A stretch of DNA of 64,000 bases from a virus. Its lineage: Duplodnaviria; Caudoviricetes. Positions 1-58,389 of the stretch are shown here, in pieces. Made by a program: the position numbers and the translations under genes. The notes beneath the pieces are model-generated. The model was given only the letters and a program-made list of their open reading frames with translations, was not told where the DNA came from and searched no databases. The stretch lies in the IMG/VR virus record IMGVR_UViG_3300047160_005525, positions 1 through 64,000 of that record, one strand, 5' to 3'. Position 1 is the first letter of the stretch, and every line of letters begins with the position of its first letter.

Positions 1-13
1 TAAAGACTAGCTT

Positions 14-1045
14 ATGACTGCACCCTTCGCCATGCCAGACACCAGCTTGCGCCCGTCCGTGCGCTCGCTCGTACGCGCCTGCGCGGGCGCAGCGCTGTTT
101 GCTTGCGGCGGCATTCCCAAGAGAAAAACCGATGAATGGCGCGCTGACGCAGGCGCATGGTACTTGTTGCGTGGCGCAGTACCGCCGGCCTTAACGACCG
201 ACGCCGAGGCGCTGGTGCGGACAGTCGTGTCGGATTTGATTTCGACATTGGCACCGCAAAGCGTGGCGGCAAAAATTTTCGCTAGGGGTCTGCAGCTGAC
301 GTTCGGCCAGGCCGGGCAGATCAGCGTGCCGACGTTGCTTGGTGATCCGAGCTTGGCGAGCTTCGTGGCCGAGGGCTGGCCGATCCCCGTCGTCCAATCG
401 GCGCTGGTCGAGCCGCTCGTGACACTCGTGCCGACGAAGCTCGCCTGCATCGTCGTGCTGACCACGGAGATGGTGCAGTCATCGAACGTCGAGGCGCTCG
501 TCCTCGACGCCTTGACCAGATCGGCTGCGCTGGCGCTGGACTCAGCGCTCCTCGACGCCAATCCAGCTAGCAGCGCGCGTCCTCCTGGCTTGCGCTACGG
601 CATCGCGGCGATCGCCGCCGATTCATCGCCTGAGCCGCTCTCGGCGTTGGTTAATGATATTGGTGCTTTATATGCCGCCGTTGCGGCGACGGCGGCACGG
701 GCGCCAGTCTATGTGATGTCATCGTCGCGTGCGTTCAGCACGCGTTATCTGCTTCCGCCCGGTTGGGCACCGGCCGATTCGCTCGGCAGTTTTGCCTTGC
801 ACGGGACGACGGACATGATTGCGATGGCACCGAATGCGATCGCATCGGCCTACGGAAGCAATGTGGAAATCTCGGCTAGCCGTGAGAGCGCGCTGCAGAT
901 GGAGACCGCGCCGACGGATTTAGCCACGGGACCGACTCGGTCGACCTGGCAAACGGATTGCGTTGCGATCCGGCTGAAGCTCCCGGTGGCGTGGGCGCTA
1001 CGCACGCCAAGGGCTGTAAGTTGGCTTACCGCGACGAATTGGTGA
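14..1045 (+). CDS. HK97-fold major capsid protein paralog (second capsid-like gene)
   Basis: Aligns by eye along its length with the capsid half of 8289-10967 (GLQLTFG/GLSLSFG, SFVAEG/SFVGEG, RPPGL, WQTDCVAIRL/WQTDSIALRM, ends TNW/ITW). Confidence 0.85.
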   Translation: MTAPFAMPDTSLRPSVRSLVRACAGAALFACGGIPKRKTDEWRADAGAWYLLRGAVPPALTTDAEALVRTVVSDLISTLAPQSVAAKIFARGLQLTFGQAGQISVPTLLGDPSLASFVAEGWPIPVVQSALVEPLVTLVPTKLACIVVLTTEMVQSSNVEALVLDALTRSAALALDSALLDANPASSARPPGLRYGIAAIAADSSPEPLSALVNDIGALYAAVAATAARAPVYVMSSSRAFSTRYLLPPGWAPADSLGSFALHGTTDMIAMAPNAIASAYGSNVEISASRESALQMETAPTDLATGPTRSTWQTDCVAIRLKLPVAWALRTPRAVSWLTATNW

Positions 1046-4095: not shown

Positions 4096-4358
4096 GCGAC
4101 CTAGAGGATCGAAGTGGTCAGCCTAAGCGGCTGACGGTTCGTGACTTGATCTCAGCGGCGCAGTCGGGCGATGCGAACACGCGCAAGCAGGCGTTCGCGG
4201 CGTATCTAGCTTGGAAGAAAGCAGCGCCGCAGATTCCTGATGCCAATCGACTCTCACAAATGGAATGCGACCTCTTGAACAAACTTTTTGTCGCAAAAGG
4301 GTTCAATGTCCCTGGCTACAAGCCGCCAGCGCCGCCTCGGCCTCGCCCGGCATACTGA
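4092..4358 (+). CDS. hypothetical protein
   Basis: ATGA overlap; open frame of 88 aa. Confidence 0.6.
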   Translation: MSDLEDRSGQPKRLTVRDLISAAQSGDANTRKQAFAAYLAWKKAAPQIPDANRLSQMECDLLNKLFVAKGFNVPGYKPPAPPRPRPAY

Positions 4359-7300
4359 CTTCATCCCGATCCGACCGCGTGACTGCTGGACGCAATGGCT
4401 CGACGAAATTATCTGGCCAGGGCGAGCGGCGCGCACGGAAAGCTTGCTGCAGCGGTGGGATGAAGACAAGCATCCGCGTGAGCCCGCGGGTAGCTCAGAA
4501 GGCGGGCAGTTCACGTCGGATGGTGGTGGTGAAGAAAGGGAAACGCATTCGTCTGTTCAGGCTGCGGTAGATGCTGCGCCGAAAGATGGCAATCTGGCAA
4601 TCTCTAATGTGAAAGGCACGCTTGATCAGGTGCGAGCACAGGCTAACCAAGCTGTTATCGATACCGGAAACCAGAAAGGAAAAGAATACGAAGTTGGTGC
4701 GGTGATCCACGTTGGTGATGAGTTGAAACATGGAACGGTAAAAGTTGGGATCGTTCACGGTACGAGCGAACAAATTCAGGAAGGTGAGCACGCTGGCAAA
4801 ATTCGGCATCATATCAAGTTTACTCACCTGGCTCCGGTCTTAAAACAATTTGGCGCTCATGAGTTAACGCATAATCATCCCAGTCTCTCTGTTGCGTCGA
4901 TGGGCGACATTGACGCGATGAATCGAACTCCAACAATGGTCTCCTTGCGTGCACATCATAGGGAAGATAGTTCATCGGTAATATCAATTCCGGGGCGAAG
5001 CGCTGATAATTTTCAACAATGGCGCGCGGAATTTAAGGGTCGGGAAGATTTGGGGAGCAATCCCGTACACTTTAAACAGTTTCTTCACGATGCTGGGGTA
5101 GGGATAATGAAGGCGCTGGGGGAGCGATTGTCGCTGGACGATAGAAAAAAGCTAGGAAATTTTGTTTCGGAAATATCCGAAAGATATAAGGATGATCCTG
5201 ACGCTGGTAAGAATTTTTTGTCAGGATATATTTTCCTTTCGGCTCTAGTGAAGGCAGGGATTGTTGAACACAACCATAAGATACCTAAAGAGCTAAAGCC
5301 AATTCTGAATAAATATAACGGATTGCTTTCGAAAGTTTTAAGAATTGGCAATAGCGTTATCGCTGATGCGCGTCGCGAAGATGTTAATCTGACCAAACAC
5401 GAGTGGAAGCCTGAGGAAGACAAGAAGGATTTTGATGAGAACGAATATTCACACTTTGACTGGGGCGACATGGAATGGATGTTTCGTTGGGACGAGTCGC
5501 AACACCCGCGCGAGCCGGGAGGTAGTCCAGAGGGCGGCCAGTTCAGTTCAGGCGGCGGTGGTGCAGGTGCCGAAGGTGGGTTCGAGTTCGTCTCGCCGAA
5601 CGTCTCCAACATTGGACTCGCGGTCGCGCACAATGCGCTTGGCGGAGAACGACAGAGCGCGCTGAAGCAGGCCTCGGGCGAGGTCGATCGGACGCTCGGT
5701 ATCACGAGCGAAGATCACGACATCATCGGCGCATGGAAGGATGGTGCCGAAAACTCGCTGATGTCGGTCTCGAAGGGAACGAGTTGGGATAAGCTCCGCG
5801 TTAGCGGAGCGATGAAGGGATGGCTCGGAGATCAGAAGCAGGTCCTGCTGTTTCGCGATGAGAAGGATGGGCCGGCTACGCTCTACAAGTTCGAATCTCC
5901 GGATGACGTTCAGAAAACTCATGAAAGAATGCTGGCCAATGGGCTTGCATTCCATACGCTGGTCCCGCACAAGGGTGGCACAACGGTTTTAGTCGCGGAT
6001 TTGGATGGATCGCTGCATCATGACACAATCGCAAAAGCCGCTGGCAAATCCCCCGTCGAATATCGGCAGGGAAAAGGCGAGTTCATCGGCACTCAGCAAG
6101 AAACCGGTGACGACCGAGCGCAGCGTGATGACGCGCGAAAAGCCTACGAAAAAATTATCAGACAATCCCCAGTTCAAGGAAGTAACGCAGCCTGGAACCG
6201 GATTCATAATCGGTGGGGTGAAACGCTAACCAAGCCGCATCCGCTCACAGCGGATAGCATCATGATCGAGGCCCCAGCGGTCAAGCGTAATTCGCTCAAA
6301 ATCAAGGACGTCGCCAAACAACTCAATGCCAGAGCAGGACACATCCTGCAGCAGCAGTTCGGCAAACCGTCCATCGAGGAATCCAGTCCGCAGACCGATG
6401 ACTATTTGGCTAGCTCTATCGCGGACGGCCTCAAGGCCGCGTTGACCAACGGCCACGCTTCACCGACATGGTACAGCGACAAGATGAAAGCGGCGATGAA
6501 CATCGCCGAGAGCATGCATCCCGAGATCGCGAAGAATCCCGACAAGCGATTCGGCTATATCGCAGCAATGGCGATTACCAGCCAGGGCGAGACGGTCGAT
6601 AGCAATGTTCGTCTTGCAGAGGAGGCTTACAAACAGTTCAATGAAACTGGAAAATTTCCAACCAATCTGGAAGTGAAGAATTCCGGCATCAATGGCAACA
6701 TGGAGAAGATGAACAAGCTGATCGAACGTTTTGGCGTCAAAGGCACGCATGAGTTCTTCGATAAGGAAATGACGGTGCGTGAACTCAAAGACATGACTGG
6801 TTACAAGGTCGGCCGCAGTTCGATGGATGATGTCGTCAACGGCTCGGCAGTGCTCGGCCCCAAGATCGGACTCGGGTTCTATCAAAACCTCAATGGCAAT
6901 TTCAAACCGTTGACGGCCGACATCTGGTTCATGCGCGCATGGGGGCGCATGACTAACACCGGCATTGGCCAGCCCGATATGAAACCGATTGCCGATCGTT
7001 TGCGCAATGCACTGAAAGAAGAGGGTCGCCCCGCGCCGGCTGATCTGGATAAGCTCGACAAGATTGCGACTGAAGTATTCGACCAGCACGAGCGTGATTT
7101 TGCCAAGCATGGCGACGAATACAAATCCGGCAAGCGCAGCAAGAGCGAATTGGTCTATGCGTCGGAGCGATTTGTCGATAGCTACGGCGGCAAGATGGTG
7201 GAAGCGCCGCGCGGGGCAGAGCATCGGCAATTCATCACCAGTGTATTCAACAAGGCGCTAGACAAGCTCAAGGCACAGGGCATCAATCTTTCGCCTGCAG

Positions 7301-7449
7301 CAGCGCAGGCGACGTGGTGGAATCCCGAGAAGGTGCTATACCAGCACCTCGGCGGTCGCACCAAAGACGTCTTCACCGATTACGAAAAGTCCTTGTCGAA
7401 ATACGAAAAGGAACATGGCCCCGCGTCGCAAGAAAGAAGTGCCGCTTGA
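4288..7449 (+). CDS. large multidomain head-associated (polyvalent) protein: JAB/MPN-like domain + unknown domain + HhH-glycosylase-like domain
   Basis: Two RWDExxHPREPxGSxEGGQFxS motifs; THNHPSLSVASMGD (JAB-like); GPKIGLGFYQNLNGNFKPLTADIWFMRAWGR (HhH-like); start codon uncertain. Confidence 0.7.
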   Translation: MSQKGSMSLATSRQRRLGLARHTDFIPIRPRDCWTQWLDEIIWPGRAARTESLLQRWDEDKHPREPAGSSEGGQFTSDGGGEERETHSSVQAAVDAAPKDGNLAISNVKGTLDQVRAQANQAVIDTGNQKGKEYEVGAVIHVGDELKHGTVKVGIVHGTSEQIQEGEHAGKIRHHIKFTHLAPVLKQFGAHELTHNHPSLSVASMGDIDAMNRTPTMVSLRAHHREDSSSVISIPGRSADNFQQWRAEFKGREDLGSNPVHFKQFLHDAGVGIMKALGERLSLDDRKKLGNFVSEISERYKDDPDAGKNFLSGYIFLSALVKAGIVEHNHKIPKELKPILNKYNGLLSKVLRIGNSVIADARREDVNLTKHEWKPEEDKKDFDENEYSHFDWGDMEWMFRWDESQHPREPGGSPEGGQFSSGGGGAGAEGGFEFVSPNVSNIGLAVAHNALGGERQSALKQASGEVDRTLGITSEDHDIIGAWKDGAENSLMSVSKGTSWDKLRVSGAMKGWLGDQKQVLLFRDEKDGPATLYKFESPDDVQKTHERMLANGLAFHTLVPHKGGTTVLVADLDGSLHHDTIAKAAGKSPVEYRQGKGEFIGTQQETGDDRAQRDDARKAYEKIIRQSPVQGSNAAWNRIHNRWGETLTKPHPLTADSIMIEAPAVKRNSLKIKDVAKQLNARAGHILQQQFGKPSIEESSPQTDDYLASSIADGLKAALTNGHASPTWYSDKMKAAMNIAESMHPEIAKNPDKRFGYIAAMAITSQGETVDSNVRLAEEAYKQFNETGKFPTNLEVKNSGINGNMEKMNKLIERFGVKGTHEFFDKEMTVRELKDMTGYKVGRSSMDDVVNGSAVLGPKIGLGFYQNLNGNFKPLTADIWFMRAWGRMTNTGIGQPDMKPIADRLRNALKEEGRPAPADLDKLDKIATEVFDQHERDFAKHGDEYKSGKRSKSELVYASERFVDSYGGKMVEAPRGAEHRQFITSVFNKALDKLKAQGINLSPAAAQATWWNPEKVLYQHLGGRTKDVFTDYEKSLSKYEKEHGPASQERSAA

Positions 7450-8288: not shown

Positions 8289-10967
8289 ATGCCATTACCC
8301 AAACCGCGTAAAGGGCAGAGTCAATCAGACTTCATGGCCGCCTGCATGCACGAAGCCTTTGGTTCTGACGCGCCGAAGGATCGTACACAACAGCAAGCGA
8401 TTGCAATGTGTATGGGGGCTTGGCGCGAAGCGCATCCATCGGCACCTCCGCCACCGAAGAAAGCCGATGACGACAAAGGCAAAGCCAAGAAACCTTACGG
8501 CGAGGTCGAGTACGCAGACCCTGGATATCAAGAGGACAAAAAGAAAAGATATCCGATCGACACCGAAGCTCACATCAGGGCCGCCTGGAACTATATTAAT
8601 AAGCCGAAGAATGCCGCGAAGTATTCGAGCGAAAATCTGGCAAAGGTTAAAGCCAAAATCGTTGCCGCTTGGAAGAAGGTGATCGACAAAGAGGGGCCGC
8701 CATCGGCTGCGGATAACAAGAAGCAGCAAATCGAACGCGTCATCAGGCGCTGGCATGACAAGTTCGGCCGTGATCCATCGGTGGCAATACTCGCACGTTT
8801 CAGTGCTGACGACATCCCTGAGCCGGATGACGATGAGAGCAAGTCGGATTTTCTTGACCGCTGCCAAGATGAAATCGGCGATGGTGACGATGACGACGAT
8901 GCCGAAGAAGCTTGCGAGCAGGCTTGGGAAGATGCGCAGGATGGCGATGACGAGGACGAAGAGCGGCGCGCGCCCGAGCTTGTACACAAGGCGCACAGCG
9001 GCGAGGTGGATGGCGTCGAGTTTGTGCTCTCGGACGACAGCATAGATCGCATGGGCGATGTAATTGTGAGTGAAGGATGGGACCTAGCTTCGTTCAAGCG
9101 CAATCCCGTCTGTCTCTTCAACCACTCTGCGATGCTGCCGATAGGTAAATGGGAAAATCTTCGCGTCGAAAAGGGTGAGTTGCGCGGTCATCTCCAACTT
9201 GCGCCCGAGGGTACGTCGCCGCGGATCGATGAAATTCGCAGGTTAGTCGATGCCGGCATTCTTCGTGCCGTCAGCGTTGGCTTCCGTCCGCTCGAAAGCG
9301 GTCCGCGACACGAAAACGGAAAAACGCTGGGAATGGTTTTTACGAAATCGGAACTGGTCGAGACATCTCTCGTATCGGTTCCGGCGAATCGCAATGCTCT
9401 CGCGGTTGCGAAGTCATTGCGTATTTCTCCTGCAACGCAGGACCTCGTCTTCGGCGGGAAAGCCTACAAAGACGAGACCACCGTGCGGCGCGGGCTAACT
9501 GGCGGGCATGCCAAAACTGCTCGAAGCGATGGAGGCGGCGTCATGTCGCTCACCCAACGAATCTCCGACTTGCAGACCTTGATGGTCGACAAGCGGGACG
9601 AACTGGAGTCGCACCTGGAAAAACAGGACGACTCGAATATCAGTGATAGTGATCTTGAGAAGACCCAAACGCTCAACGCCGAGATCGCGCAGCTGGAGAA
9701 GCAACACGCTGCGCTGGTCGAGGCGGAGAAGCGGTTGGCGAAGACGGCCGATGGCGGCGGCAATAGTGGTAGTCGCAGCCGGGCGCTGGCGACGACGGCG
9801 TTCACGCAGCCGAAGAACGACGGCGGTGTGACTGCTCCGCTCATCATTCCGAACGCGCGCAAGAAGGACCTCGATCCGATCGATCTGCTCGTGCGAGCGG
9901 GTACGATCAGCTACGTGTCGAAAGTCTGGAATCAGACCACGGAGAATACGCGGCTGAAGATCTATGGCGATGACGAGGGCACAAAGATCGTGTCCGACAT
10001 CATCTTACGCGCGCCATCGGCACCAGCAATGACGAACGTAGTTTCCTGGGCACAGGAACTCGTACAAGTTGTATATTCTGATCTGCTCAACCTGCTGTTA
10101 GCCAAGAGTATCTACACCAGACTTGCAGCGAAGGGGCTTTCGTTGAGCTTCGGCCGTGCGGGCAAGATCAACATTCCTGCTCGCTCGCGTACGCCGACTA
10201 TAGCTGGGAGCTTTGTGGGTGAGGGGCAGGCCATTCCAGTTCGAATGGGCGCTTTTACAACGCAGACTCTCGTTCCGAAGAAAATGGCCGTCATCAGCGT
10301 GTGGTCTCGTGAGATGGACGAGCATAGCATTCCTGCGATTGAAGGCGTGCTACGCGAAGCAGTGCAAGAAGATACCAGCGTCGCGCTCGACAGTGTACTC
10401 ATTGATACGAATGCGGCGACTGCGATCCGGCCGCCTGGTCTGCTCAATGGCGTAACGGCTACAACTGCGACGGCGGGCGGTGGCCTCGACGCGTTGATCG
10501 GTGACATCAAGGCGCTGGTCGGTGCGTTGTCGACGAATACCTATGGCAATGTTCGCAGTCCGGTATGGATCGCAAATCAAGTCGACATGCTGTCGGCTGG
10601 GTTGGCCATGGCGGCGAATACCGGTATCTTCCCGTTCCGTGACGAAGTTGCGGCCGGGCGGCTGGCGAATATACCTATTATCGACAGCGCGACGGTTCCG
10701 GCTAAAACCCTTATCTTGGTTGACGCTGCGGACTTTGTCGCGGTGGGCGGGGAAGCTCCCCGATTCGAGTTAAGCGATCAAGCGACTCTTCATATGGACG
10801 ATTCCGCGCCTGCAGAACTTGTTGGCACGGGCAGTCCTGGAGCGGTTGCTTCACCGCAGCGCTCGCTCTGGCAAACCGACTCGATCGCGCTTCGGATGAT
10901 CATGCCAATGAATTGGTGGCAGCGCCGTCCGGGTACGATTGCCTACACGACCGGAATCACCTGGTAA
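8289..10967 (+). CDS. HK97-type prohead protease - major capsid fusion with N-terminal accessory domains (DUF6582-like)
   Basis: Protease motifs DRMGDVI, LFNHS, LRAVSVGFRP, ELVETSLVSVPAN; C-terminal HK97 capsid; YADPGYQEDKKKRYPIDTEAHIRAAWNYIN recalled as DUF6582-like. Confidence 0.92.
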   Translation: MPLPKPRKGQSQSDFMAACMHEAFGSDAPKDRTQQQAIAMCMGAWREAHPSAPPPPKKADDDKGKAKKPYGEVEYADPGYQEDKKKRYPIDTEAHIRAAWNYINKPKNAAKYSSENLAKVKAKIVAAWKKVIDKEGPPSAADNKKQQIERVIRRWHDKFGRDPSVAILARFSADDIPEPDDDESKSDFLDRCQDEIGDGDDDDDAEEACEQAWEDAQDGDDEDEERRAPELVHKAHSGEVDGVEFVLSDDSIDRMGDVIVSEGWDLASFKRNPVCLFNHSAMLPIGKWENLRVEKGELRGHLQLAPEGTSPRIDEIRRLVDAGILRAVSVGFRPLESGPRHENGKTLGMVFTKSELVETSLVSVPANRNALAVAKSLRISPATQDLVFGGKAYKDETTVRRGLTGGHAKTARSDGGGVMSLTQRISDLQTLMVDKRDELESHLEKQDDSNISDSDLEKTQTLNAEIAQLEKQHAALVEAEKRLAKTADGGGNSGSRSRALATTAFTQPKNDGGVTAPLIIPNARKKDLDPIDLLVRAGTISYVSKVWNQTTENTRLKIYGDDEGTKIVSDIILRAPSAPAMTNVVSWAQELVQVVYSDLLNLLLAKSIYTRLAAKGLSLSFGRAGKINIPARSRTPTIAGSFVGEGQAIPVRMGAFTTQTLVPKKMAVISVWSREMDEHSIPAIEGVLREAVQEDTSVALDSVLIDTNAATAIRPPGLLNGVTATTATAGGGLDALIGDIKALVGALSTNTYGNVRSPVWIANQVDMLSAGLAMAANTGIFPFRDEVAAGRLANIPIIDSATVPAKTLILVDAADFVAVGGEAPRFELSDQATLHMDDSAPAELVGTGSPGAVASPQRSLWQTDSIALRMIMPMNWWQRRPGTIAYTTGITW

Positions 10968-14447: not shown

Positions 14448-14571
14448 GAGGGCCGACTCTTCGGATGAAAAGTCAGCCCTCACCTCGCCATGCCTTGCCT
14501 AGCCTCGCCGTGCCTCGCCCTGCCTGGCCAAGCCTGGCCTCGCCAAGACCATGTTAGTCTAGCATTTTCAC
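14448..14571 (-). ncRNA. GGY/NN pentamer-array cassette B (13 units)
   Basis: Hairpin 14448-14481; RCC-NN units 14482-14546; GTGAAA-N4-TAGACT on - strand at 14556-14571; NN code matches 14416-14445. Confidence 0.8.
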
Positions 14572-17937: not shown

Positions 17938-20031
17938 ATGCCTATCTCTTTCGCAAACATTCCATCTAATATTAAGGTCCCTTTATATTGGGTGGAAGTG
18001 GATAACGCGAATCAAGCGTAGGTCCCTTTGTCGAGCAATCGACATCGAACATCGGGTGAACTCGGGGAAACTCCAGATCGGACAATCCCGAGCCAAGCTG
18101 CCGCAACGGCAGAAGGTGTAACGACTAGAGCGCAAGCTCGTAGGATCAAGCGATCCGAAGCGCCCGACGCCCCAAGTGGGCGGTGATATAGTCTCCTCCA
18201 CATAGGAATATGTGGCAGTCCGCAAAAGGACGGTAGCGAGAGTAGCGAACTCGCTGCGAAGATTAGGCCCTCAATGGCAGGTTTGCCGACGCTCAATCTG
18301 CGAGCGTTGCTGATCGGCACGATGAATGCTGACGGCACTGGCACTCAAGACATCCCGGTTGCCATAGGCACGCAAGCATCAGCCGACGAGAAGTTCGGCG
18401 TAGGCTCTGAACTCGCGCAGATGTTCAAAGCCTACTTTAAAAATAATTTTGCCAATGAGGTGTGGGCGGGGCCCGTGGCTCCGTCTACTAACTCGCAAGC
18501 AGCAAGTGGCACGATCACGGTGACGACGCCGCCGAGCGAGGCCGGAACGATCAATCTCTACATCGCCGGTCATCATGTGGCGGTCAACGTCGGCATGAGT
18601 GATACGGCTGAGCAGGTTGCGCTTGAAATCGCTAACGCGATTAATGCAATCGAACCCGCTTTGCCGGTGACAGCGGCAGCAGGGACCGGAGCGACAACTA
18701 CGGGAACTGGCACCGGCAATTCGACGGGCACGACCAGTCTGACCGTCTCGTCGTCAACCGGTACCATCGCGATCGGCGCGACCGTGACTGGCACCGGCGT
18801 TCCTGCCAACACGACGATTGCGAGTCAGACCTCGGGCACGATCGGCGGCGATGGCGTGTACGTCACCAGTAACCCGACGACGCTGTCGGCGGCAGCGATC
18901 ACGACCACGCTGACCAGCAATACGAACGTGGTCACGGTGACTTGCACCTTCCTGGGCGTCAACGGCAACGAGATTCGCATCGAGCAGGACTACTACGGAA
19001 TGCTCGGCGGCGAACGGCCGGTGACGGGGCTGGTGCTGACGTTGCCGGCGACAAACTTCTTGACCGGCGGTGTCGGCACGCCGGACTTTACCAACTTGAT
19101 CATAGCCATGGGCGAGACGCCGTTTGAGTATCTCTGCGTGCCTTACTGGGATTCCAACACCTTGCTCGCGTTTGAGGAGGAGATGGGATTCGGAGATTCG
19201 GGTCGCTGGGGATGGCAGCGTCAGCTGTTCGGCCATGTGTTCCTTGCCAAGCGCGGTCAATACTCGGACCTCGTCACCTGGGGCTTGACCCGCAACAGCG
19301 GATTGATCTCGGTGCTGGCGTTCGAGAATCCCACGCCGACGCCGATGTACGAGATGGCGGCGGCTTACACGGCGAAGGCGCAGCGCGCGCTCAGCAACGA
19401 CCCGGCCAGGCCGCTGCAGACCTTGCAACTCAACGGCACGCTGCCGGCGAAGCTGCACGATCGCTTCAACTTCGTCGAACTCAACTCCCTCGCCTCAAGC
19501 GGCCTTGCCATCCAGAAGTGTTGGGAAGGCTCGGGCATGTCGCAAATCGCCCGCGAGCAAACAACCTACCAACTTAATCTTTATGGCCAGGGCGATGACG
19601 CGTACGAACTCGTCACGACGCTCGCGACGTTGGCGAAGATTCTCCGCAATCAACGTCACGCGATCACGAGCAAGTATCCCAGACACAAACTTGCGAATGA
19701 CGGAACACGCTTCGGGCCAGGGCAGGCGATTGTGACCCCGGCTATTATCAAAGCCGAATTAGTCGCACAATACCGGATGGATATGTGGGACGGCCTCGTC
19801 GAGGACGTCGCCGACTTCAAGCGCTTCCTCCTGGTGGAAAGGGACCCGGATAACCCTAATAGGTTAAACGTGCTTTATCCGCCTGACTTGATAAATCAGC
19901 TGCGAATCTTCGCCGTGCTCGCACAATTTAGACTCCAGTACGATCGTGGGATCGATGTTGCCATTATCGGCTATACGGGACTCGCAGGAATCGCTGGACC
20001 TGGTGGTGCCTTAACTGGTACTGGTGGCTAA
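17938..20031 (+). CDS. contractile tail sheath (Mu gpL-like), interrupted by a group I intron at 18004-18267
   Basis: Exon 1 MPISFANIPSNIKVPLYWVEVD + exon 2 PSMAGLPTL...; sheath motifs YTAKAQRALSNDPARPLQTL, VERDPDNPNRLNVLYPPDLINQLRIFA. Confidence 0.92.
18004..18267 (+). mobile_element. ORF-less group I intron (264 nt)
   Basis: U at 5' splice site pairs with IGS GGUCC; P3 TCGGGTG/CGCCCGA; P4 CTCGGG/CCCGAG; P7 GACTA/TAGTC; P9 CCACATA-GGAA-TATGTGG; terminal G; in-frame TAG removed by splicing. Confidence 0.9.
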
Positions 20032-40315: not shown

Positions 40316-40959
40316 TGAAGAAAGCGTATGTCTACGCGATCATTGTTGATGGAGTGATCCGCTACTTCGGCAAAGGTAGCGGCAACCGAAAACTCGCGCA
40401 TATGCGAATGGTGCGAAGCATCGCCCGTCGTCGCGCCGCTGGCGAAACAGTGCGTACTTCACATTTTTACAATCGATTGACAAAAGCATGGCTCGAAGGA
40501 GCAGAGATTGCAGAGATCATTCTCGTCGAAGGCTTGACTAATGAAGAGGCGTACGCGCGGGAGATCGCCGAGATAGCGGCTGCGCCACAAGGACAATTAT
40601 GGAATACGTGGCCCGGTGGAGAAGGTGGCGGCAAAGGTCATTCGCTATCGCTCGAACATAGACAGAAAATTGCTGAATCAAATCGAAAGACTTGGTCTGA
40701 TCCTGAAGTTTTGGCCAAACAATCTGAGCAGAAGAAAATACATTGGTTGCGACCGGAGTATCAAGCGCAATTAGTCGGTCGAAAATGGACGCCGGAAATG
40801 AAGCAAGAACTTTCTGATACACGAAAAGCGCAATGGGCTGATCCGGAATTCGAAGCGCGAATGCAGGCAAGCAAGCGATCAGCGCCAGAATTCCACGCAA
40901 AGCGCAGCGAAGAGCGGCGACGAAGCTGGGAAACTCGGCGTAAATCGAAAACAACATGA
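40315..40959 (+). mobile_element. GIY-YIG-like homing endonuclease with NUMOD3-like tail
   Basis: YVYAI...RYFGKGSGNR, LWNTWPGGEG, HSLSLEHRQKIAES. Confidence 0.7.
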
Positions 40960-40966
40960 GGATGAC

Positions 40967-42676
40967 ATGCGTTACGTTCAGCCGTGGGGAATAAGTGATC
41001 CCAATGCTAGCTACATAAACGGCGACCCATCCGTCGCGCGTCAAGGTTCGATTCCGCCAGCAGCTGCTTTCGAAAATCCGCAGCGGGAGTTGGTCTCGGT
41101 TATTACCAACAGCCAGATCGTGCCCGACGATGGCGATCTGCAGCAGGTGTCGAAGGGCACGCGCTCGCAGCGCATGAACTACTGCGAGGATACCGGATCG
41201 GTCGACAATCTATCGGTTGCGCTCGACCCTCCGCTCGCGGGCTACACCTTTGGTCTTCCGCTTCGCGTCAAGGTTCGCAACACGAACACCGGAGCGGCGA
41301 CAATTGACGCGGGCGCTGGTCGAGTGCCGATCAGGAAGCCAACCGGTGCCGAACTGAATGCCGGTGATGCTCCTGCTTTTGGTCTCATTGAGTTGGTCTA
41401 TGACGGTACTGTCTTTCAGATGATCAATTTCACTGGGGCTGTGCCCAGTGGTCCTCCTCAAACTTTTCTCTACAACATCCCATACTGCGTTGACGCATCG
41501 GTCACGCCGAATAGCGTCATCGCTAATTTCAGTCCGGCCATAACGGCGCTGTCGGCCGGCACGATCTTCATGGTCAAGATTGCCAATACCAGCAATGGAG
41601 CTACTGCAACCATCAACGTCAACGCTCTCGGCGACAAGCCGATCTTCGCTCAAGGCTGCAACGTGAATTGGCCGCTCCTCCCCGGTGATATGCAAGCGGG
41701 CGATGTTTTGATCTTCACGTACGACGGAACGCAATTTTGGGTCTATGGTAATCCGACTATCACCGAAAATGTCACGCTCAACGTATCAACTCTTGATCAG
41801 GCTAGAGACCTCTTCAGCGCGCTTGGTCGCAAGAGGGTTTCACTATCGGGTACCTTAACGATACTCCTGGCGACGGGTGCCTATCAGGGTTTCGATGCCA
41901 ACGGCGCTATTCTTACGACTTATCATCCTGATTCCGATCGCATCACGCTTGCCGGCACGATGCTGGGTGGTCAGGTCCCGCCGCCTGACGCCAGTGTCTT
42001 TCAGCGCAGCGGTTCTTCCGCCGCGGCGCGGGCAAACGATTCTGCGTACAACATCCAGATGCTGCGTGCGAGATACGGGACCGAATTCATGCTTGGCCCA
42101 AGTAGAGGCTATGGCATCACGCATGTCGGCCCTGGGACGATCAACGTAAGCAATATCTTGATCACCGGGCCGAACTACGAAGTTACGGGACAGTGTGGCT
42201 TCGGTGCTCTTTCAAATATGGCACCTAACGGTTGCAGCGTTTGGGGCATAGGCGACATTGGATTCGGCGCTTACGGCCCGGCGATCATGAATTGCACGAA
42301 TTGTCACGCAAGTTCGGTCGCCAATCGAGGCTTTGCGGCGACCGGAAATTCTCAGGTATTTCTTTCAGGCGGTAGTTCGCAAGGAAATGTCGCATCGGGC
42401 GTCGAGATTTCACACGGTGCCAGGGGCAGTAGTCATGCCATGGATTTGGTGAGCCTATCTCAAGGCTTTCAGGCCAGTTGCAACGGCAGTTATGGAATCA
42501 GTGTTCAATCCGGCTTCATGTTGGCGGTCTATGCTACGGTTGTCGCCAACGGATCAATCGACATGTACGCGTTTAATGGAGGGACGGCTGCAGAGTTGTA
42601 CTGCACTATCGGCACTGTGTCGCCGGCCTGGGGTGCTGAAGGCAACCTGAACTCGATCGCAATATACTACGGCTAA
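40967..42676 (+). CDS. tail fibre protein
   Basis: YINGDPSVARQGSIPPAAAFENPQRE N-terminus; beta-helix-like C-terminus. Confidence 0.8.
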   Translation: MRYVQPWGISDPNASYINGDPSVARQGSIPPAAAFENPQRELVSVITNSQIVPDDGDLQQVSKGTRSQRMNYCEDTGSVDNLSVALDPPLAGYTFGLPLRVKVRNTNTGAATIDAGAGRVPIRKPTGAELNAGDAPAFGLIELVYDGTVFQMINFTGAVPSGPPQTFLYNIPYCVDASVTPNSVIANFSPAITALSAGTIFMVKIANTSNGATATINVNALGDKPIFAQGCNVNWPLLPGDMQAGDVLIFTYDGTQFWVYGNPTITENVTLNVSTLDQARDLFSALGRKRVSLSGTLTILLATGAYQGFDANGAILTTYHPDSDRITLAGTMLGGQVPPPDASVFQRSGSSAAARANDSAYNIQMLRARYGTEFMLGPSRGYGITHVGPGTINVSNILITGPNYEVTGQCGFGALSNMAPNGCSVWGIGDIGFGAYGPAIMNCTNCHASSVANRGFAATGNSQVFLSGGSSQGNVASGVEISHGARGSSHAMDLVSLSQGFQASCNGSYGISVQSGFMLAVYATVVANGSIDMYAFNGGTAAELYCTIGTVSPAWGAEGNLNSIAIYYG

Positions 42677-46197: not shown

Positions 46198-47798
46198 TCA
46201 TCGCGCTGAGTTCAGGCCATGCTCGTGATTGCCCAGGCGCTTCGGACATCATCGATGAGGTCACGGAGGCGCGACGCGTGGTCGAGCGTACAGCGCAATA
46301 TCTTCGCACCGCTGGCATCGATGTCCGCGTTTTCCATGACAACGAATCGACATCTCAGGACGAGAATCTAGACGCCATCATTGACTGGACGAATGCCCAA
46401 GATGCCGATCTCGCGGTCTCGATTCATTTCAATTCGAACGGGACCACGTCTCAGCCGGTCGGTACTGAATGTTGGTACAAGACGCAACGAGAGTTAGCGG
46501 CTGACGTCGCTGCCGAGATTGCTATATCTTCAGGGCTTATCGATCGAGGCGGCAAACAGACCGATTCTTTGGCATTTTTGAATGGGACCGAAGCTCCAGC
46601 GATCTTGGTAGAGGTCTGTTTCGTAAATTCACAGGCGGACTGCACAACCTATCGACAGAAATTCGATGACGTTTGTCGCGCTCTCGCCGGTGCGATATCG
46701 AGCGAGACAATCCCGCCGAGCGAGCCGGGTGAACGTGCCCCGCGTCCTGAATGGCCGCAATTCCCCGAAGCGCCAGAGGGACCACCATGGGACAGCAGAC
46801 CTGAAGAAGTTCCGATCGAGGATCGACCGACACTACGGCGCGGCGATGAAGGCCCTCATGTGCTCGACATGCAGCGCATGATCCCGCGGTTCACCGGTGA
46901 CTTCGACGGCGACTTTGGACCGACGACGGAAGACAATGTTCTGCGCTATCAGGACTCGCGCGGGCTCGATGCTGATGGCATCTGCGGGCCGATTATGTGG
47001 GAGGCGCTGTACACGCACAAGCTTCCTGTGCCGCCTCCGCCGGCTCCGCCTGGTGCGCTTACGCCCGAGCAGCAGGTCGTGATCATGCGGCTCGCGAACG
47101 ATTCTGCGATTGCTGATTACTATTGGCAGGATCGTGGTATTGCGCCAAACGGTTGGATCACTGGCATGGCATTGGCGTTCGGGCAAACTTACAAGAAATG
47201 GAAGGTTGGTCATCCGGCTGCACTCGAGATGGCGAAAGCGCGCATGGACACCGACAAGGACGTGCTCAATCTCTATCGCGATGAGTTCGAGCAGCTTGGT
47301 ATGCCAAATGAAGATGATGGGGCTGATACGTTGCGGCATCTCTTTGCCCTTCTTATCGGGCACGGCATGAGAGAGAGTTCGGGCGCCTACTGCGAAGGTC
47401 GAGACATGAGCGCCGACAATGTCGAAAGCGATACGGCTGAAGCTGGCGCCTTCCAGACTTCATACAACGCGCACACCGCGAGCGATCCGGAATTCGACAA
47501 CCTGATGGATGAATATCTGCACGGTCTATCGCCGGGTTATGAAGATGCTTTCTCGGAGGGCGTATCATGTTCGTCGGACGATTGGGAAAATTACGGCAGT
47601 CCAGAAGAGCGTGGCTATCAATTTCAGCGGCTGAGCAAAGACGCACCTGCGATGGCTGCCGAGCACTGCGCACTTACCTCACGAAATCTCGCGAATCATT
47701 ACGGGCCTTATCTGCGTCACGAGACCGAACTCAAGGAGGACGCAGATAACATGCTTGAGGCTGTGGCGGCTTATCTTGACGAAACCGAGCAAGCATGA
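46194..47798 (+). CDS. endolysin: N-acetylmuramoyl-L-alanine amidase (Amidase_3) + peptidoglycan-binding domain + C-terminal domain
   Basis: SSGH..DEVTE, VSIHFNS, ILVEVCFVNS; DGDFGPTTEDNVLRYQDSRGLDADGICG. Confidence 0.92.
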   Translation: MIIALSSGHARDCPGASDIIDEVTEARRVVERTAQYLRTAGIDVRVFHDNESTSQDENLDAIIDWTNAQDADLAVSIHFNSNGTTSQPVGTECWYKTQRELAADVAAEIAISSGLIDRGGKQTDSLAFLNGTEAPAILVEVCFVNSQADCTTYRQKFDDVCRALAGAISSETIPPSEPGERAPRPEWPQFPEAPEGPPWDSRPEEVPIEDRPTLRRGDEGPHVLDMQRMIPRFTGDFDGDFGPTTEDNVLRYQDSRGLDADGICGPIMWEALYTHKLPVPPPPAPPGALTPEQQVVIMRLANDSAIADYYWQDRGIAPNGWITGMALAFGQTYKKWKVGHPAALEMAKARMDTDKDVLNLYRDEFEQLGMPNEDDGADTLRHLFALLIGHGMRESSGAYCEGRDMSADNVESDTAEAGAFQTSYNAHTASDPEFDNLMDEYLHGLSPGYEDAFSEGVSCSSDDWENYGSPEERGYQFQRLSKDAPAMAAEHCALTSRNLANHYGPYLRHETELKEDADNMLEAVAAYLDETEQA

Positions 47799-47911
47799 GA
47801 AACGGCCGCCCATTTTGTGACGACCGTTTCTCCCCTGCCATGCCTTACCGGGCCATGCCGCGCCCCGCCAGACCGGACCTTGCCACGCCCAACCGGGCCA
47901 TGCCGCGCCCT
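47797..47911 (-). ncRNA. GGY/NN pentamer-array cassette C (15 units)
   Basis: Hairpin 47797-47832; units 47837-47911; NN code matches the endolysin at 47136-47174. Confidence 0.82.
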
Positions 47912-48334: not shown

Positions 48335-48724
48335 ATGGCTCGCATACCGGCTCATCTGATTCGTCGTCTAAAACAAGAGGAGAGATGCATGAGCTATACG
48401 CTTCCAAGCGGGATGCAAGTTACTTGCCAAATTTCTTACGTTGATGCCGCGGGCAATCCCGCTGTCGTTGATGGTGATGTGGCGTGGTCATCGAGCGATG
48501 AAACTAAGCTCGTCGTCTTTGTCAACTCACAGGATTCGACAAAGGTCGTCCTGCGAACTGTCGGGCCAGTCGGCCTCGTTCAAGTCAAAGCAACGGCTGA
48601 TGCTGATTTAGGCGCGGGCGTTCGCGAACTTGTCACTACCGCCGATGTCGACATTATCGCCGGTGAGGCAGTTGCCGGCATGATTTCACCAATCGGTCCC
48701 GCCGAGCCAATCCCCGCGGCATAA
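48335..48724 (+). CDS. Ig-like beta-sandwich protein
   Basis: YVDAAGNPAVVDGDVAWSSSD..VQVKATADADLG. Confidence 0.65.
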   Translation: MARIPAHLIRRLKQEERCMSYTLPSGMQVTCQISYVDAAGNPAVVDGDVAWSSSDETKLVVFVNSQDSTKVVLRTVGPVGLVQVKATADADLGAGVRELVTTADVDIIAGEAVAGMISPIGPAEPIPAA

Positions 48725-48726
48725 AT

Positions 48727-48833
48727 GAGAGCGAGAGCTTTCGCTCCCGCTCTCCCCTACCTTGCCTCGCCGGGCCGTACCATACCATTCCTTGCCCGAC
48801 CACACCCCGCCGCGCCCCACCAGACCTCGCCGC
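48727..48833 (-). ncRNA. GGY/NN pentamer-array cassette D (15 units)
   Basis: Hairpin 48727-48754; units 48759-48833 (one TCC variant); NN code matches 48602-48640. Confidence 0.82.
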
Positions 48834-49392: not shown

Positions 49393-49500
49393 GAGAGCGA
49401 GAGCTTTTGGCCCTCGCTCTCCCTTGCCTCGCCGCGCCGCGCCAAGCCTTGCCGTGCCTGGCCTAGCCACGCCCTACCCCGCCTAGCCGCGCCCCGCCAC
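49393..49500 (-). ncRNA. GGY/NN pentamer-array cassette E (15 units)
   Basis: Hairpin 49393-49421, nearly identical to that of D; units 49426-49500; NN code matches 49600-49635. Confidence 0.8.
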
Positions 49501-49515
49501 ATTAAAAATAAAATC

Positions 49516-49830
49516 TCATCGCTCTTTCCCCAGCCATCGATAAGCTTGATGCCGCAAACTACGTGGCACAGCACGCGCTTCGACGCGAATATATGAGCTT
49601 GTGGCTTTAGAAGGCAATCGATACCAAACGAGTTTACTCGATTTCCAGGTTCGGTGAGCAACGTAGACTTGGCCATTGCGCGGTCGGCTGACGAAGAGAC
49701 CGTGTAAAGCATGGCGAGAAGTGCGGGGAAGCGCAGCTGGTGGGGCTGTGTGTGCTACGCTCCCCCTGGCCGGCATCACGGGGGGCTGTTGCAATGCCGG
49801 GTCCAAATTGTAGTCGTTAGAGAAGTCCAT
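49516..49830 (-). CDS. hypothetical protein (its homolog is the apparent target of cassette E)
   Basis: ATG start; codon-register match with the cassette E code. Confidence 0.55.
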   Translation of the reverse strand: MDFSNDYNLDPALQQPPVMPARGSVAHTAPPAALPRTSRHALHGLFVSRPRNGQVYVAHRTWKSSKLVWYRLPSKATSSYIRVEARAVPRSLRHQAYRWLGKER

Positions 49831-50819: not shown

Positions 50820-51035
50820 TCATGGCTTTTGCTCTATCAAAAATCTTGGCAGCAGCGACCGTGCGCAGTCGAGGCATAAATCCCAATCTCTCGGTCGCGA
50901 TGGATTGCTTGCCTTGGCGCCACGCTCGATATGCGCTTCGAGGATACGCTGGACATTGATTTGGAGACGAATCTCAACGCGATCTTCGTCGGTGATATCG
51001 CGATCGCATTTTTCGCAGAAATATTTCATGGTCAT
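50820..51035 (-). CDS. small CxxC zinc-finger protein
   Basis: FCEKCD...LCLDCAR. Confidence 0.65.
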   Translation of the reverse strand: MTMKYFCEKCDRDITDEDRVEIRLQINVQRILEAHIERGAKASNPSRPRDWDLCLDCARSLLPRFLIEQKP

Positions 51036-51286
51036 TTCAGGAAAGTCCCTATGAACATGCCGAGCCCGAAAATCAGCACGCCGACGAACGTACTGATGAT
51101 CATTGGAATGCGCGACGACGGAAGTTCGAATGGCGGCGGCACGCGGTCCTTGAGCGCTTGATCAATTCTCTCAAGGTGTTTGTGCAATTCAATATTTTGT
51201 GCATCAGTTCGCGCGGCCGGCGCAAAGCGCTCGTCGATCTTATGTTCGAGCGAAGCAAATAGCTCGCGCAGTTCGTTGTCTTTCAT
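51032..51286 (-). CDS. coiled-coil protein with C-terminal TM helix
   Basis: Heptad N-terminus; hydrophobic C-terminus. Confidence 0.6.
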   Translation of the reverse strand: MKDNELRELFASLEHKIDERFAPAARTDAQNIELHKHLERIDQALKDRVPPPFELPSSRIPMIISTFVGVLIFGLGMFIGTFLK

Positions 51287-51508: not shown

Positions 51509-52147
51509 TCAGTGTCCCTTCCCGCGCTTTGGCAGCATGCCGACCAGGCGGCCTGCGCTGTTGGTCCAGCGTTCGATTTCGAGCGGCCCAAGCGTCGGCT
51601 TATCGTCTTTGCGAATGATCTTGCGTATTCCTGTCAGTTCGCCTTCCCGCTCGCTCTCGGCCTGGATCAGTACAACTTCCTCGCGGTTCGGGCGATCTTT
51701 CGGCATGACATTTGGTCTACCTTCTTTCACTTCATCGTCTTTGTAGCTGGCAATCCATGCCTCGTCGCAGAACGCATAAGCGACTGCGTCAGCGACTTTA
51801 AGCAGCGCACGAATTTTTTGCGCGATCTCGTCTTTGTCTCCGATGGGATCGACGATCAAATGAAAGCCTTCCCGGCAGACGATGTGGTACATCGGCCTGA
51901 CGCAGCCGTTTCTGCTCATGAAATCATCACAGGCTTCGGAGACCTGGCGCATCAATTTTTCTAACTCGATATTCGGCGAAGCTTCGAGGATATAGACCGG
52001 GCCTAGGCCGAGATCGGAAAGTTTGTCGCTACGTCTCATTGGCCCTCCAGCTTTCGAGCCGCGCAGCGCTTGAAATGCCATCTTTCCATAGCGCTGCCCT
52101 TTCCTGTTTTTCCGCAATGTGGGCATGTACGCGTTGTCGGGCACCAC
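51509..52147 (-). CDS. hypothetical protein (true start probably downstream)
   Basis: AYAFCDEAWIA..DRPNREEVVLIQAES. Confidence 0.6.
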   Translation of the reverse strand: MVPDNAYMPTLRKNRKGQRYGKMAFQALRGSKAGGPMRRSDKLSDLGLGPVYILEASPNIELEKLMRQVSEACDDFMSRNGCVRPMYHIVCREGFHLIVDPIGDKDEIAQKIRALLKVADAVAYAFCDEAWIASYKDDEVKEGRPNVMPKDRPNREEVVLIQAESEREGELTGIRKIIRKDDKPTLGPLEIERWTNSAGRLVGMLPKRGKGH

Positions 52148-56835: not shown

Positions 56836-57117
56836 GACGCTTCATGCAAGTGCATGACGCTATTTCCTGGCCAGGCCATCGGCAGGCCATCGCCTCGGCA
56901 GATTTTGCAAGAAACCCGCATGGAATGGGCAGAAGTCGAAAAGATCACCCTCCCCACAAGGGGGAGGGGCGATCATATGGCATGATATGGGATGATACTT
57001 GGTTGTCAACTAAGTACTTGACTTTCCGAGGCGAAAGTCCACATCTATCAATGACGCTTCATGGAGCTTCATGGCTCGCCTGGCCATGGACAGGCCACCA
57101 GAGAGAAGGATCGGAAG

Positions 57118-58389
57118 ATGACCAGCTTCAAGCCCAAGGATCTGCAGACGCCCGGAGGGCGCCGCGGATTACTCCCTCGCCCCAAATGCTACTTCGTCTC
57201 GCTGTGCCCCGGTGTCTCGCTTGGTTACCGTCGCCTCGCGGATGTAGCCGGCGCGCCGCGCGCGGGCGCCTGGACGCTGCGCAAGGCTGACGGCAAGGGT
57301 GGCGGCTGCCCCAAGGGTTTCGCCGTCGCCGACGACGTCGTGCAGGCCAACGGCAACGAGATCCTGACCTACAAGCAGGCCGTCGCCAAGGCGCTGGCTT
57401 TCGCCGGCGGCACCACTGCCCAGGATGATCCCCCGATCACCGTCGCTATGGCCATCCTCGACTACACCAAGTCGCTGATCGAACGCGGCCGCCGTCCCTA
57501 CAACGCGACCCGCCTTTGGCGCCTCGACAAGGACGGCAATCCAATTCCCGGTCTGGTTCCGGCCTGGCTAGCTGATCGCCAAGTCGGCGCCCTAACGATC
57601 AAGGAGCTTGAGCGGTGGCGCGAGAGTCTCGGCTACAAGCACAAGGGCACCCTCAATCGCACCATCAAGCCGCTCAAGAAGGCGCTGAACCGCGCTGCCG
57701 CGCGCGATCACCGTATCACCAACACGCATGTGTGGAGCGGTGCGGAAAGCGGCTTGCCGCTCATTCCCAAGGCTGACGGCGTGCGCCGCGTCTTTCTTGA
57801 GCCGGCTCAGGTGAATGCGCTGATCGATGCTGCATACGCGTATGAGGCCGATCGCGGCTTTGGCTTGTTCGTGGAAACTGGCGCCGAAACTGGCGCGCGC
57901 CCGAGCCAGCTATGGAAACTCAAGGTCTCCAGCCTCAACGGCAACCGCGTGATGATGCCGCCGTCCAAGAAGGGGCCAGATGGCAAGGATCTGCCTCCAG
58001 TCGCGGTCCCCATCACTCCGGTCCTGGCCGCCAAGCTTCGCGAGGCGGCGGGGCGCCGCAGCCCCAGCGAGCCGCTCCTGCTTCGCGATGAGCGCTTCGA
58101 GCAGCGTGAATGGGTGAGCGACAACGGCGCTTGGATAGATCCCTTCAACGCAATCGTCGCCAAAGTCCGCGAGCAGATGGAGTTGCCCGCGGACGTCACC
58201 TACTACGCGCTTCGCCACTCCACCGCGAAGCGACAGATCCGGGCTGGCATTGATCTGGTCACCATCGCCCAGCGCCTGGAGACCAGCGTGGCCACGTTGC
58301 AGAAGCACTACGCTGCCGCCATCAGCGAAATCGCCGGCGATGACACGGTCGGGCTACTCGAACGCCCCGCGCTCCGCGTAGTCGCATGA
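57118..58389 (+). CDS. int: tyrosine integrase
   Basis: N-terminal arm-binding segment (SLGYRR..GAWTLR); ETGARPSQL, YALRHS, TSVATLQKHY catalytic motifs. Confidence 0.92.
   Translation: MTSFKPKDLQTPGGRRGLLPRPKCYFVSLCPGVSLGYRRLADVAGAPRAGAWTLRKADGKGGGCPKGFAVADDVVQANGNEILTYKQAVAKALAFAGGTTAQDDPPITVAMAILDYTKSLIERGRRPYNATRLWRLDKDGNPIPGLVPAWLADRQVGALTIKELERWRESLGYKHKGTLNRTIKPLKKALNRAAARDHRITNTHVWSGAESGLPLIPKADGVRRVFLEPAQVNALIDAAYAYEADRGFGLFVETGAETGARPSQLWKLKVSSLNGNRVMMPPSKKGPDGKDLPPVAVPITPVLAAKLREAAGRRSPSEPLLLRDERFEQREWVSDNGAWIDPFNAIVAKVREQMELPADVTYYALRHSTAKRQIRAGIDLVTIAQRLETSVATLQKHYAAAISEIAGDDTVGLLERPALRVVA

Follow-up and report, generated by a model that had tools for sequence, protein, structure and literature searches.

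The 3' end of a small phage gene, ORF104, runs into a tract of regularly spaced pentamers (cassette E) whose variable dinucleotides partly spell the codons of that same gene, which raises the question of what kind of element this is and against which sequence it is directed. The stretch of DNA analysed here, hereafter the window, is the initial 64 kb of a phage record of 76,776 bp (IMGVR_UViG_3300047160_005525). Judged by its sequence, cassette E is a solo vrRNA that fits the RNA definition of the VIPR system in all testable respects. We consider it likely that this vrRNA is directed against the ORF104 allele of sibling phages and lies beside the phage's own, mismatched allele.

VIPR, described in 2026, consists of the RAMP protein Vipr, a vrRNA and vap, and its experimental exemplars are the type II system of Escherichia phage SUSP1 and the system of a Pseudomonas fulva prophage (bioRxiv 10.64898/2026.04.26.720920). 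The vrRNA has 9-16 YNNGG repeats, in which GGY is conserved and NN is hypervariable, and it ends in a structured 3' tail. Its NN pairs read double-stranded DNA and pass over a single base between one pair and the next, usually the one at the codon wobble position (10.64898/2026.04.26.720920). Natural targets are called at an NN match of at least 80%, a level above which no self-targets occur; silencing in the published assays was abolished once the NN pairing was perturbed, and no adaptation machinery is known (10.64898/2026.04.26.720920). In the structures, Vipr protomers coat the GGY motifs (10.64898/2026.04.26.720927). Solo vrRNAs without a nearby Vipr are known from VIPR-null SUSP1-like phages, which have deleted vipr-vap1 but kept solo vrRNAs with predicted competitor targets, and from F5 satellites, whose solo vrRNAs work with the Vipr of another element; a guide that matches a competitor better than its own genome is read as autoimmunity avoidance (10.64898/2026.10.15.759431). 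The known natural VIPR targets are satellites, prophage regulators, vipr genes and other vrRNAs.

The features of the locus, all on the - strand, are as follows.

49393-49421, - strand: 3' tail hairpin of vrRNA E, with a 12-bp stem and a 5-nt loop, beginning inside the final GGG unit
49421-49500, - strand: guide tract of vrRNA E, 16 pentamers NN-GGY (RCC-NN on the + strand), every GG intact
49501-49515, - strand: AU-rich spacer of 15 nt between the ORF104 stop codon and the first guide unit, read from the sequence
49516-49830, - strand: ORF104, the phage's own allele of the presumed target gene, encoding a 104-aa protein conserved in the homolog P0001
49588-49617, - strand: promoter-like site TTGCCT-N18-TATATT from a consensus scan, inside ORF104 and overlapping the footprint
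49601-49647, - strand: self footprint, codons 62-77 of ORF104, matched by guide E at 18/32 positions (16/26 over units 4-16)

On the + strand, cassette E opens with the stem GAGAGCGAGAGC (49393-49404), the loop TTTTG and the stem GCCCTCGCTCTC (49410-49421), continues with 16 pentamers whose NN order is TT TC GC GC AA TT GT TG TA AC CT CC TA GC CC AC, and is bordered beyond them by an AT-rich flank. Read on the - strand, it consists of NN-GGY units followed by a hairpin at the 3' end. As a - strand RNA the hairpin folds at -23 kcal/mol (z -5.1, and z -4.4 for the whole element) and contains one G.U pair, at which the + strand would have an A.C mismatch. Hairpin and pentamers were re-read, and their coordinates and sequence are those given in the first-pass annotation. 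Units 1-2, adjacent to the tail (GA-GGC and AA-GGG), resemble the constant units of other vrRNAs (GAGGC/AGGGA) and are probably scaffold, and units 4-16 are the part that matches the rival allele described below. An Rfam search returned no family at cassette E, and megablast of the region against named phages returned no match.

The guide begins 15 nt past the ORF104 stop codon and is thus part of the 3' untranslated sequence of the very gene that it matches, which makes the ORF104 transcript the probable source of vrRNA E; we infer that the two are co-transcribed. The units of the main array, 26 kb away, are likewise separated by AU-rich spacers, ending in GAUU. In addition, the promoter-like site inside ORF104 (one found versus 0.5 expected in the consensus scan) is a weak, possible candidate for a promoter of vrRNA E itself.

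Guide E, its own gene and the rival allele

The match between guide E and ORF104 is real, yet by itself it stands at background level. Recounting the last 12 units against the - strand at 49635-49601 reproduced the values reported earlier, namely 16/24 nucleotides and 6/12 exact dinucleotides, with two swaps between Leu codon families. The footprint is in frame with ORF104, so that the skipped base is the wobble base, and the wobble-skipping rule that had been read from the letters alone is the published one-base-skip rule of VIPR vrRNAs (bioRxiv 10.64898/2026.04.26.720920). Leaving out the two tail-proximal units, the guide scores 17/28 on its own gene, which ties the best score in the 76.8-kb genome; over all units, the highest score in the 76.8-kb record is 20/32, compared to 18/32 at the adjoining ORF104 site. 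In a block test, the self-match score was reached by 18% of genome blocks of equal size. Moreover, 12-unit sub-windows of guide E match 14 genome sites at 16/24 or better, with 0.22 expected within 600 nt, so the self-match is not significant alone. No self-target reaches 80%, and by the published criterion of at least 80% the ORF104 site is not a target.

A search of 5.8 billion proteins, in which the guide was not part of the query, revealed one full-length family of ORF104 homologs. P0001 (99 aa, from a JGI metagenome) shares 67% identity with ORF104 over the full length (E 7e-35), and P0002, from a second source (ENA), equals P0001 except for one residue. The full-length homolog shows that ORF104 is a real gene, and it overturned our earlier assessment of this Arg/Pro/Ser-rich frame as non-coding from its negative codon score, a score that is uninformative for ORF104. 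The gene is single-copy in the genome, where P0001 has no second copy; searches for longer forms of ORF104 found none, and no match was found in Pfam, PHROG or NCBIfam.

At the aligned site, where P0001/P0002 read ..AKFIWYTLPYAPT, the phage's own protein has S-S-K-L-V-W-Y-R-L-P-S-K-A-T versus L-A-K-F-I-W-Y-T-L-P-Y-A-P-T in the homologs, and guide E decodes to A-A-K/N-F/L-V-W-Y-T-L-P-Y-A-P-T. The first-pass annotation had predicted that homologs would carry an LVWYTLPYAPT allele, and this was borne out, as P0001/P0002 carry KFIWYTLPYAPT, agreeing with 11/12 decoded residues (12/13 once the preceding Ala unit is counted). Read back from the protein at codon positions 1 and 2, with the Leu codon family as the sole ambiguity, the guide would match P0001/P0002 in frame at 24-25/26 nucleotides over units 4-16 and at 26-27/32 (81-84%) overall. 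On this protein-derived count, the match exceeds the published 80% NN threshold, for a rival allele represented by two near-identical metagenomic protein sequences.

Two controls bear on this match. On P0001, none of the phage's 13 other guides exceeds 62% in either orientation, and 5000 unit-shuffles of guide E scored on it gave a mean of 16.4 and a maximum of 23/32, compared to the observed 26-27; chance is thereby effectively refuted. Furthermore, ORF104 and P0001 are identical at only 6/16 residues within the footprint versus 62/83 elsewhere (Fisher p = 0.005), and the minimum of sliding-window identity between the two proteins coincides with the footprint. Protein-seeded scans for relatives of ORF104/P0001 found none in the metagenome, genome or viral contigs scanned, and the exact guide E pattern had no match in the viral contigs scanned. 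A distant C-terminal relative of ORF104 in a related phage, G003 (48% identity over 40 aa), was rejected as a target, guide E scoring only 9/24 on it.

Sister cassettes in the genome and in related phages

Cassette E belongs to a family of arrays far beyond chance. The RCC-NN array pattern occurs 42 times in the window versus 1.06 expected by chance, and it is one-stranded across the whole record, with 127 matches on the forward and 0 on the reverse strand. The genome holds at least 14 guide arrays, the 14 arrays compared differing in their NN strings. Besides cassette E, they include the following.

2587-2678, - strand: cassette A, a solo vrRNA with the architecture of E
14448-14546, - strand: cassette B, a solo vrRNA with the architecture of E
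47797-47911, - strand: cassette C, a solo vrRNA after the endolysin gene
48727-48833, - strand: cassette D, a solo vrRNA with a tail near-identical to that of E, adjoining an Ig-like gene
record 71357-71441 (L009 8357-8441): cassette F, 17 units, without a hairpin
record 75993-76776 (L009 12993-13776), - strand: main array of at least nine units with the spacer AGGGA-UAUUUCGAUGAUU, without hairpin tails

Cassettes A-D have hairpins at the same position, with differing sequences. The tails of D and E, described earlier as nearly identical, are ~86% identical over ~36 nt in an alignment, and their NN strings agree at 13/32 positions; a conserved tail and scaffold with near-random NN identity would fit the recent duplication and NN reprogramming proposed for this pair.

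Several sister guides also relate to a neighbouring gene. Guide C scores 24/28 at the homologous site in the endolysins of four related phages (L013, L014, L015 and L017) and 20/28 in the phage's own endolysin (47133-47173). Guide D reaches 23/28 on the Ig-like gene's L010 homolog and 22/28 on the phage's own copy at 48602-48642, its best match genome-wide. Cassette F ends 4 nt ahead of the ATG of a YqaJ-like exonuclease gene, and its genome-best match (22/30) lies ~450 nt inside that same gene. For guides C, D and F the genome-best match falls less than 700 nt from the cassette (each p ~0.02), E ties for best, and the cassette-proximity tests give a Fisher combined p of 0.008. The orientation of guide to target varies, being inverted for D and E and direct for C and F, which fits targeting of either DNA strand and speaks against one simple copying mechanism. 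For cassettes A and B no target above background was found, and neither shows a relation to a neighbour gene.

The record terminus falls within the main array. At the other end, window positions 1-30 (AAGACTA..ATGACTGCA) resemble the flank after cassette A (2676-2705), which makes an assembly break in an array likely; the record start probably adjoins an array, within whose repeats the assembly broke. Beyond the main array lies a strong sigma-70-like promoter (TTGACG-N17-TAATAT), with a ParB/DUF6551-like gene after it. The spacer motif of the main array had no match in the viral contigs scanned.

Among related phages, G003 (IMGVR_UViG_3300005764_000021) carries five vrRNA arrays, including those at 7262-7351, 8359-8423, 40922-41129 and 51015-51089. 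Three of its arrays follow paralogs of the major-capsid-like gene found at 14-1045 of the window, and the array at 51015-51089 has a joint-best match of 20/26 only 30 nt away. The complete relatives G001 and G002 are without arrays.

Proposed action and competing explanations

The likely reading of cassette E as a solo vrRNA against the sibling allele suggests the following course, in which transcription, Vipr loading, DNA binding and a competitive benefit are steps that we infer. The vrRNA would be read from the - strand, either forming the last part of the ORF104 transcript or starting at a promoter within ORF104. By analogy with the published system, Vipr protomers would coat its GGY motifs and expose the NN pairs, which would bind double-stranded DNA with each third base skipped. 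The 13 informative units would spell codons 61-73 of a P0001-type allele in frame, skipping the wobble base, and the RNA would pair with the coding strand of the rival ORF104, where, again by analogy, transcription would be blocked. Binding would spare the phage's own allele, which lies 100 nt upstream on the strand of the guide and differs at 10/26 positions. The most likely function is then the silencing of ORF104 or its operon in sibling phages that co-infect the cell or already reside in it. Being less than 150 bp apart, guide and resistant footprint would be inherited together and rarely split by recombination.

In most respects this layout follows VIPR. Cassette E is phage-borne and has 16 tandem GGY/NN pentamers, within the published 9-16, together with a structured 3' tail; its target is apparently set by NN pairs with one base skipped at the codon wobble; and it scores, on the protein-derived count, above 80% on the gene of a competing phage, with no self-target at 80%. 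Unlike the exemplars, its record contains no detected Vipr and no recognisable vap, its tail is a plain 12-bp hairpin rather than the pseudoknot of SUSP1, six vrRNAs are scattered over the early and late regions at a distance from the main array, and the apparent target is the homologous allele of the adjoining gene rather than a satellite or a prophage regulator. A vrRNA counts as solo when its contig, or the 20 kb around it, contains no Vipr. Like the published solo vrRNAs, E stands alone without a Vipr nearby, none having been detected on the record, and would match a competitor better than itself. However, those published guides lie at the former vipr-vap1 locus or in satellites and target vipr, other vrRNAs, satellites or host REP decoys, whereas E lies at the 3' end of an ordinary phage gene and appears to be aimed at a rival allele of that neighbour.

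Two other kinds of system invite comparison. Phage-encoded CRISPR arrays and mini-arrays are virus-borne programmable guides against competing phages or satellites, and their spacers are contiguous, lie between repeats and work with Cas effectors and, as a rule, a PAM; of the two, only E-type guides interleave fixed GGY triplets and sit beside a self allele. The homing endonucleases of T-even phages (Seg, I-Tev) bring about marker exclusion through a protein nuclease, with cleavage and repair. The analogy is that a selfish determinant beside a resistant allele would attack the sensitive allele of a co-infecting relative, so that the linked region is favoured. In cassette E, by contrast, the agent would be an RNA guide acting through presumed transcriptional silencing, and no nuclease was identified.

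Several other explanations have to be weighed against a guide aimed at sibling phages. That the adjacency of guide and gene merely reflects origin, the guides having been made from or moved with a copy of the neighbouring gene by duplication or recombination, with the linkage unselected, seems unlikely to us, though far from negligible. It would account for the four of six dispersed guides (C, D, E and F) that relate to a gene less than 700 nt away; the common tail and unrelated NN strings of D and E suggest that cassettes are duplicated and rewritten, and VIPR has no known adaptation machinery that would otherwise write them. However, a copying origin would not predict the inconstant orientation of guide to target (D and E inverted, C and F direct), nor a guide that fits the rival allele while the adjoining allele is most diverged in exactly the footprint, as selection for escape predicts. 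We regard it as rather improbable that cassette E is a relic of a lost VIPR system, an orphan now non-functional whose likeness to P0001 is historical. Vipr is not detectable in the 76.8-kb record, and VIPR-null phages that keep solo vrRNAs after deletion of vipr-vap1 are documented (10.64898/2026.10.15.759431). Yet all 16 GGY units and the 12-bp tail of E are intact, at least 14 well-formed vrRNAs are kept, including a nine-unit array, and the locus of the main array, in which the record ends, is incompletely assembled. Moreover, the solo vrRNAs of the VIPR-null phages have predicted competitor targets, and those of satellites use a foreign Vipr (10.64898/2026.10.15.759431).

The location of the self site, joint-best in the genome, 100 nt away, in the same transcription unit and overlapping the promoter-like site, would also suit an autoregulatory RNA that tunes the transcription of its own ORF104 through partial complementarity. 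We give this little credence, because only 56% of the NN positions fit the phage's own site (62% over units 4-16) and the mismatches are distributed over the length of the guide, whereas natural targets match at 80% or more and silencing is abolished by perturbed NN pairing (10.64898/2026.04.26.720920); besides, the rival allele matches far better. Least credible of all is chance, in which the pentamers form a vrRNA or some other repeat with an NN string unrelated to ORF104. The self-match alone, with its 14 equals in the genome and 0.22 expected nearby, is indeed at background, but a score of 26-27/32 at the homologous in-frame site of P0001, which neither the shuffles (at most 23/32) nor the other guides (at most 62%) approach, effectively refutes it, unless the P0001/P0002 records are artefacts.

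The VIPR system, solo vrRNAs and guides that fit competitors better than self have already been published. Those parts of the VIPR discovery and solo-vrRNA preprints that a search by term brings up describe no guide in or beside its own recoded target allele at multiple loci. What cassette E would add is a guide in the 3' end of an ordinary gene, aimed at that gene's allele in relatives, with the phage's own copy recoded under the footprint. If this is general, VIPR would also act in allele-level competition among sibling phages, with guide and immunity inherited as a unit, and scattered solo vrRNAs could point to the genes and rivals that count in natural phage populations. Such a layout is also relevant to the origin of new vrRNA guides, given that no adaptation machinery is known. 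More tentatively, and with more doubt than belief, we suggest that scattered vrRNAs and the adjacent recoded alleles form linked poison-antidote modules that are driven through a recombining phage population. Were this the case, recombinants would survive only with the guide-linked resistant allele, and hitch-hikers would spread as well; such modules would parallel homing-endonuclease marker exclusion, with an RNA guide as the agent, and might use a Vipr supplied in trans.

The search for Vipr and other genes of the record

The Vipr sought is a minimal RAMP protein of ~20 kDa. The Vipr of SUSP1 (YP_009199429; phmmer) found no match in the six frames of this phage and of G003, nor did a profile of 34 Vipr sequences (hmmsearch --max, hhalign) in the same frames, and the Pfam RAMPs family (PF03787) had no match in six frames. 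Vipr types are very divergent and the record ends in the main array, so these searches do not prove absence; its gene may be missing from the assembly, the protein may have diverged beyond recognition, or it may be supplied in trans.

Individual ORFs were also considered as Vipr and set aside. A 265-aa ORF near the main array (L009 10890-11687, - strand) is predicted to fold like RlmJ (pLDDT 91). The predicted fold is that of an RlmJ-like N6-adenine methyltransferase, and the protein has the motifs AGDGxG and DPCGP, matches no Pfam model and represents a family of 117 clusters at 50% identity; its gene shares an operon with those of a ParB-like and a ParB_N-DUF5131 protein. The 399-aa ORF directly downstream of the main array is ParB/DUF6551-like, a putative DNA-binding protein. 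The array-adjacent ORF at 14-1045 and its three paralogs in G003 are major-capsid-like capsid proteins. The 1053-aa ORF at 4288-7449 (+ strand), 71% identical in array-bearing G003 and absent from the array-less relatives, was considered as a gene shared only with G003 and yielded nothing, with no family or structure match.

At 51509-52039 (- strand), a 176-aa ORF has a homolog in array-less G001, with which it shares a Gly-rich C-terminal motif, GR(L/M)VG(M/L)LP. Its elements are predicted in the order beta-alpha-beta-beta-alpha-beta, in a model (pLDDT 41) too poor to judge RAMP-likeness.

Elsewhere in the window, a group I catalytic intron (Rfam RF00028, 65 bits, E 3e-14) lies at 17958-18215 (+ strand) in the structural region, closely upstream of a 585-aa ORF at 18274-20031. 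The G+C content of the phage is 57%. A tyrosine-integrase-like gene at 57061-58389 (+ strand; Pfam Phage_integrase, E 7e-6, slightly below the cut-off) suggests a temperate phage.
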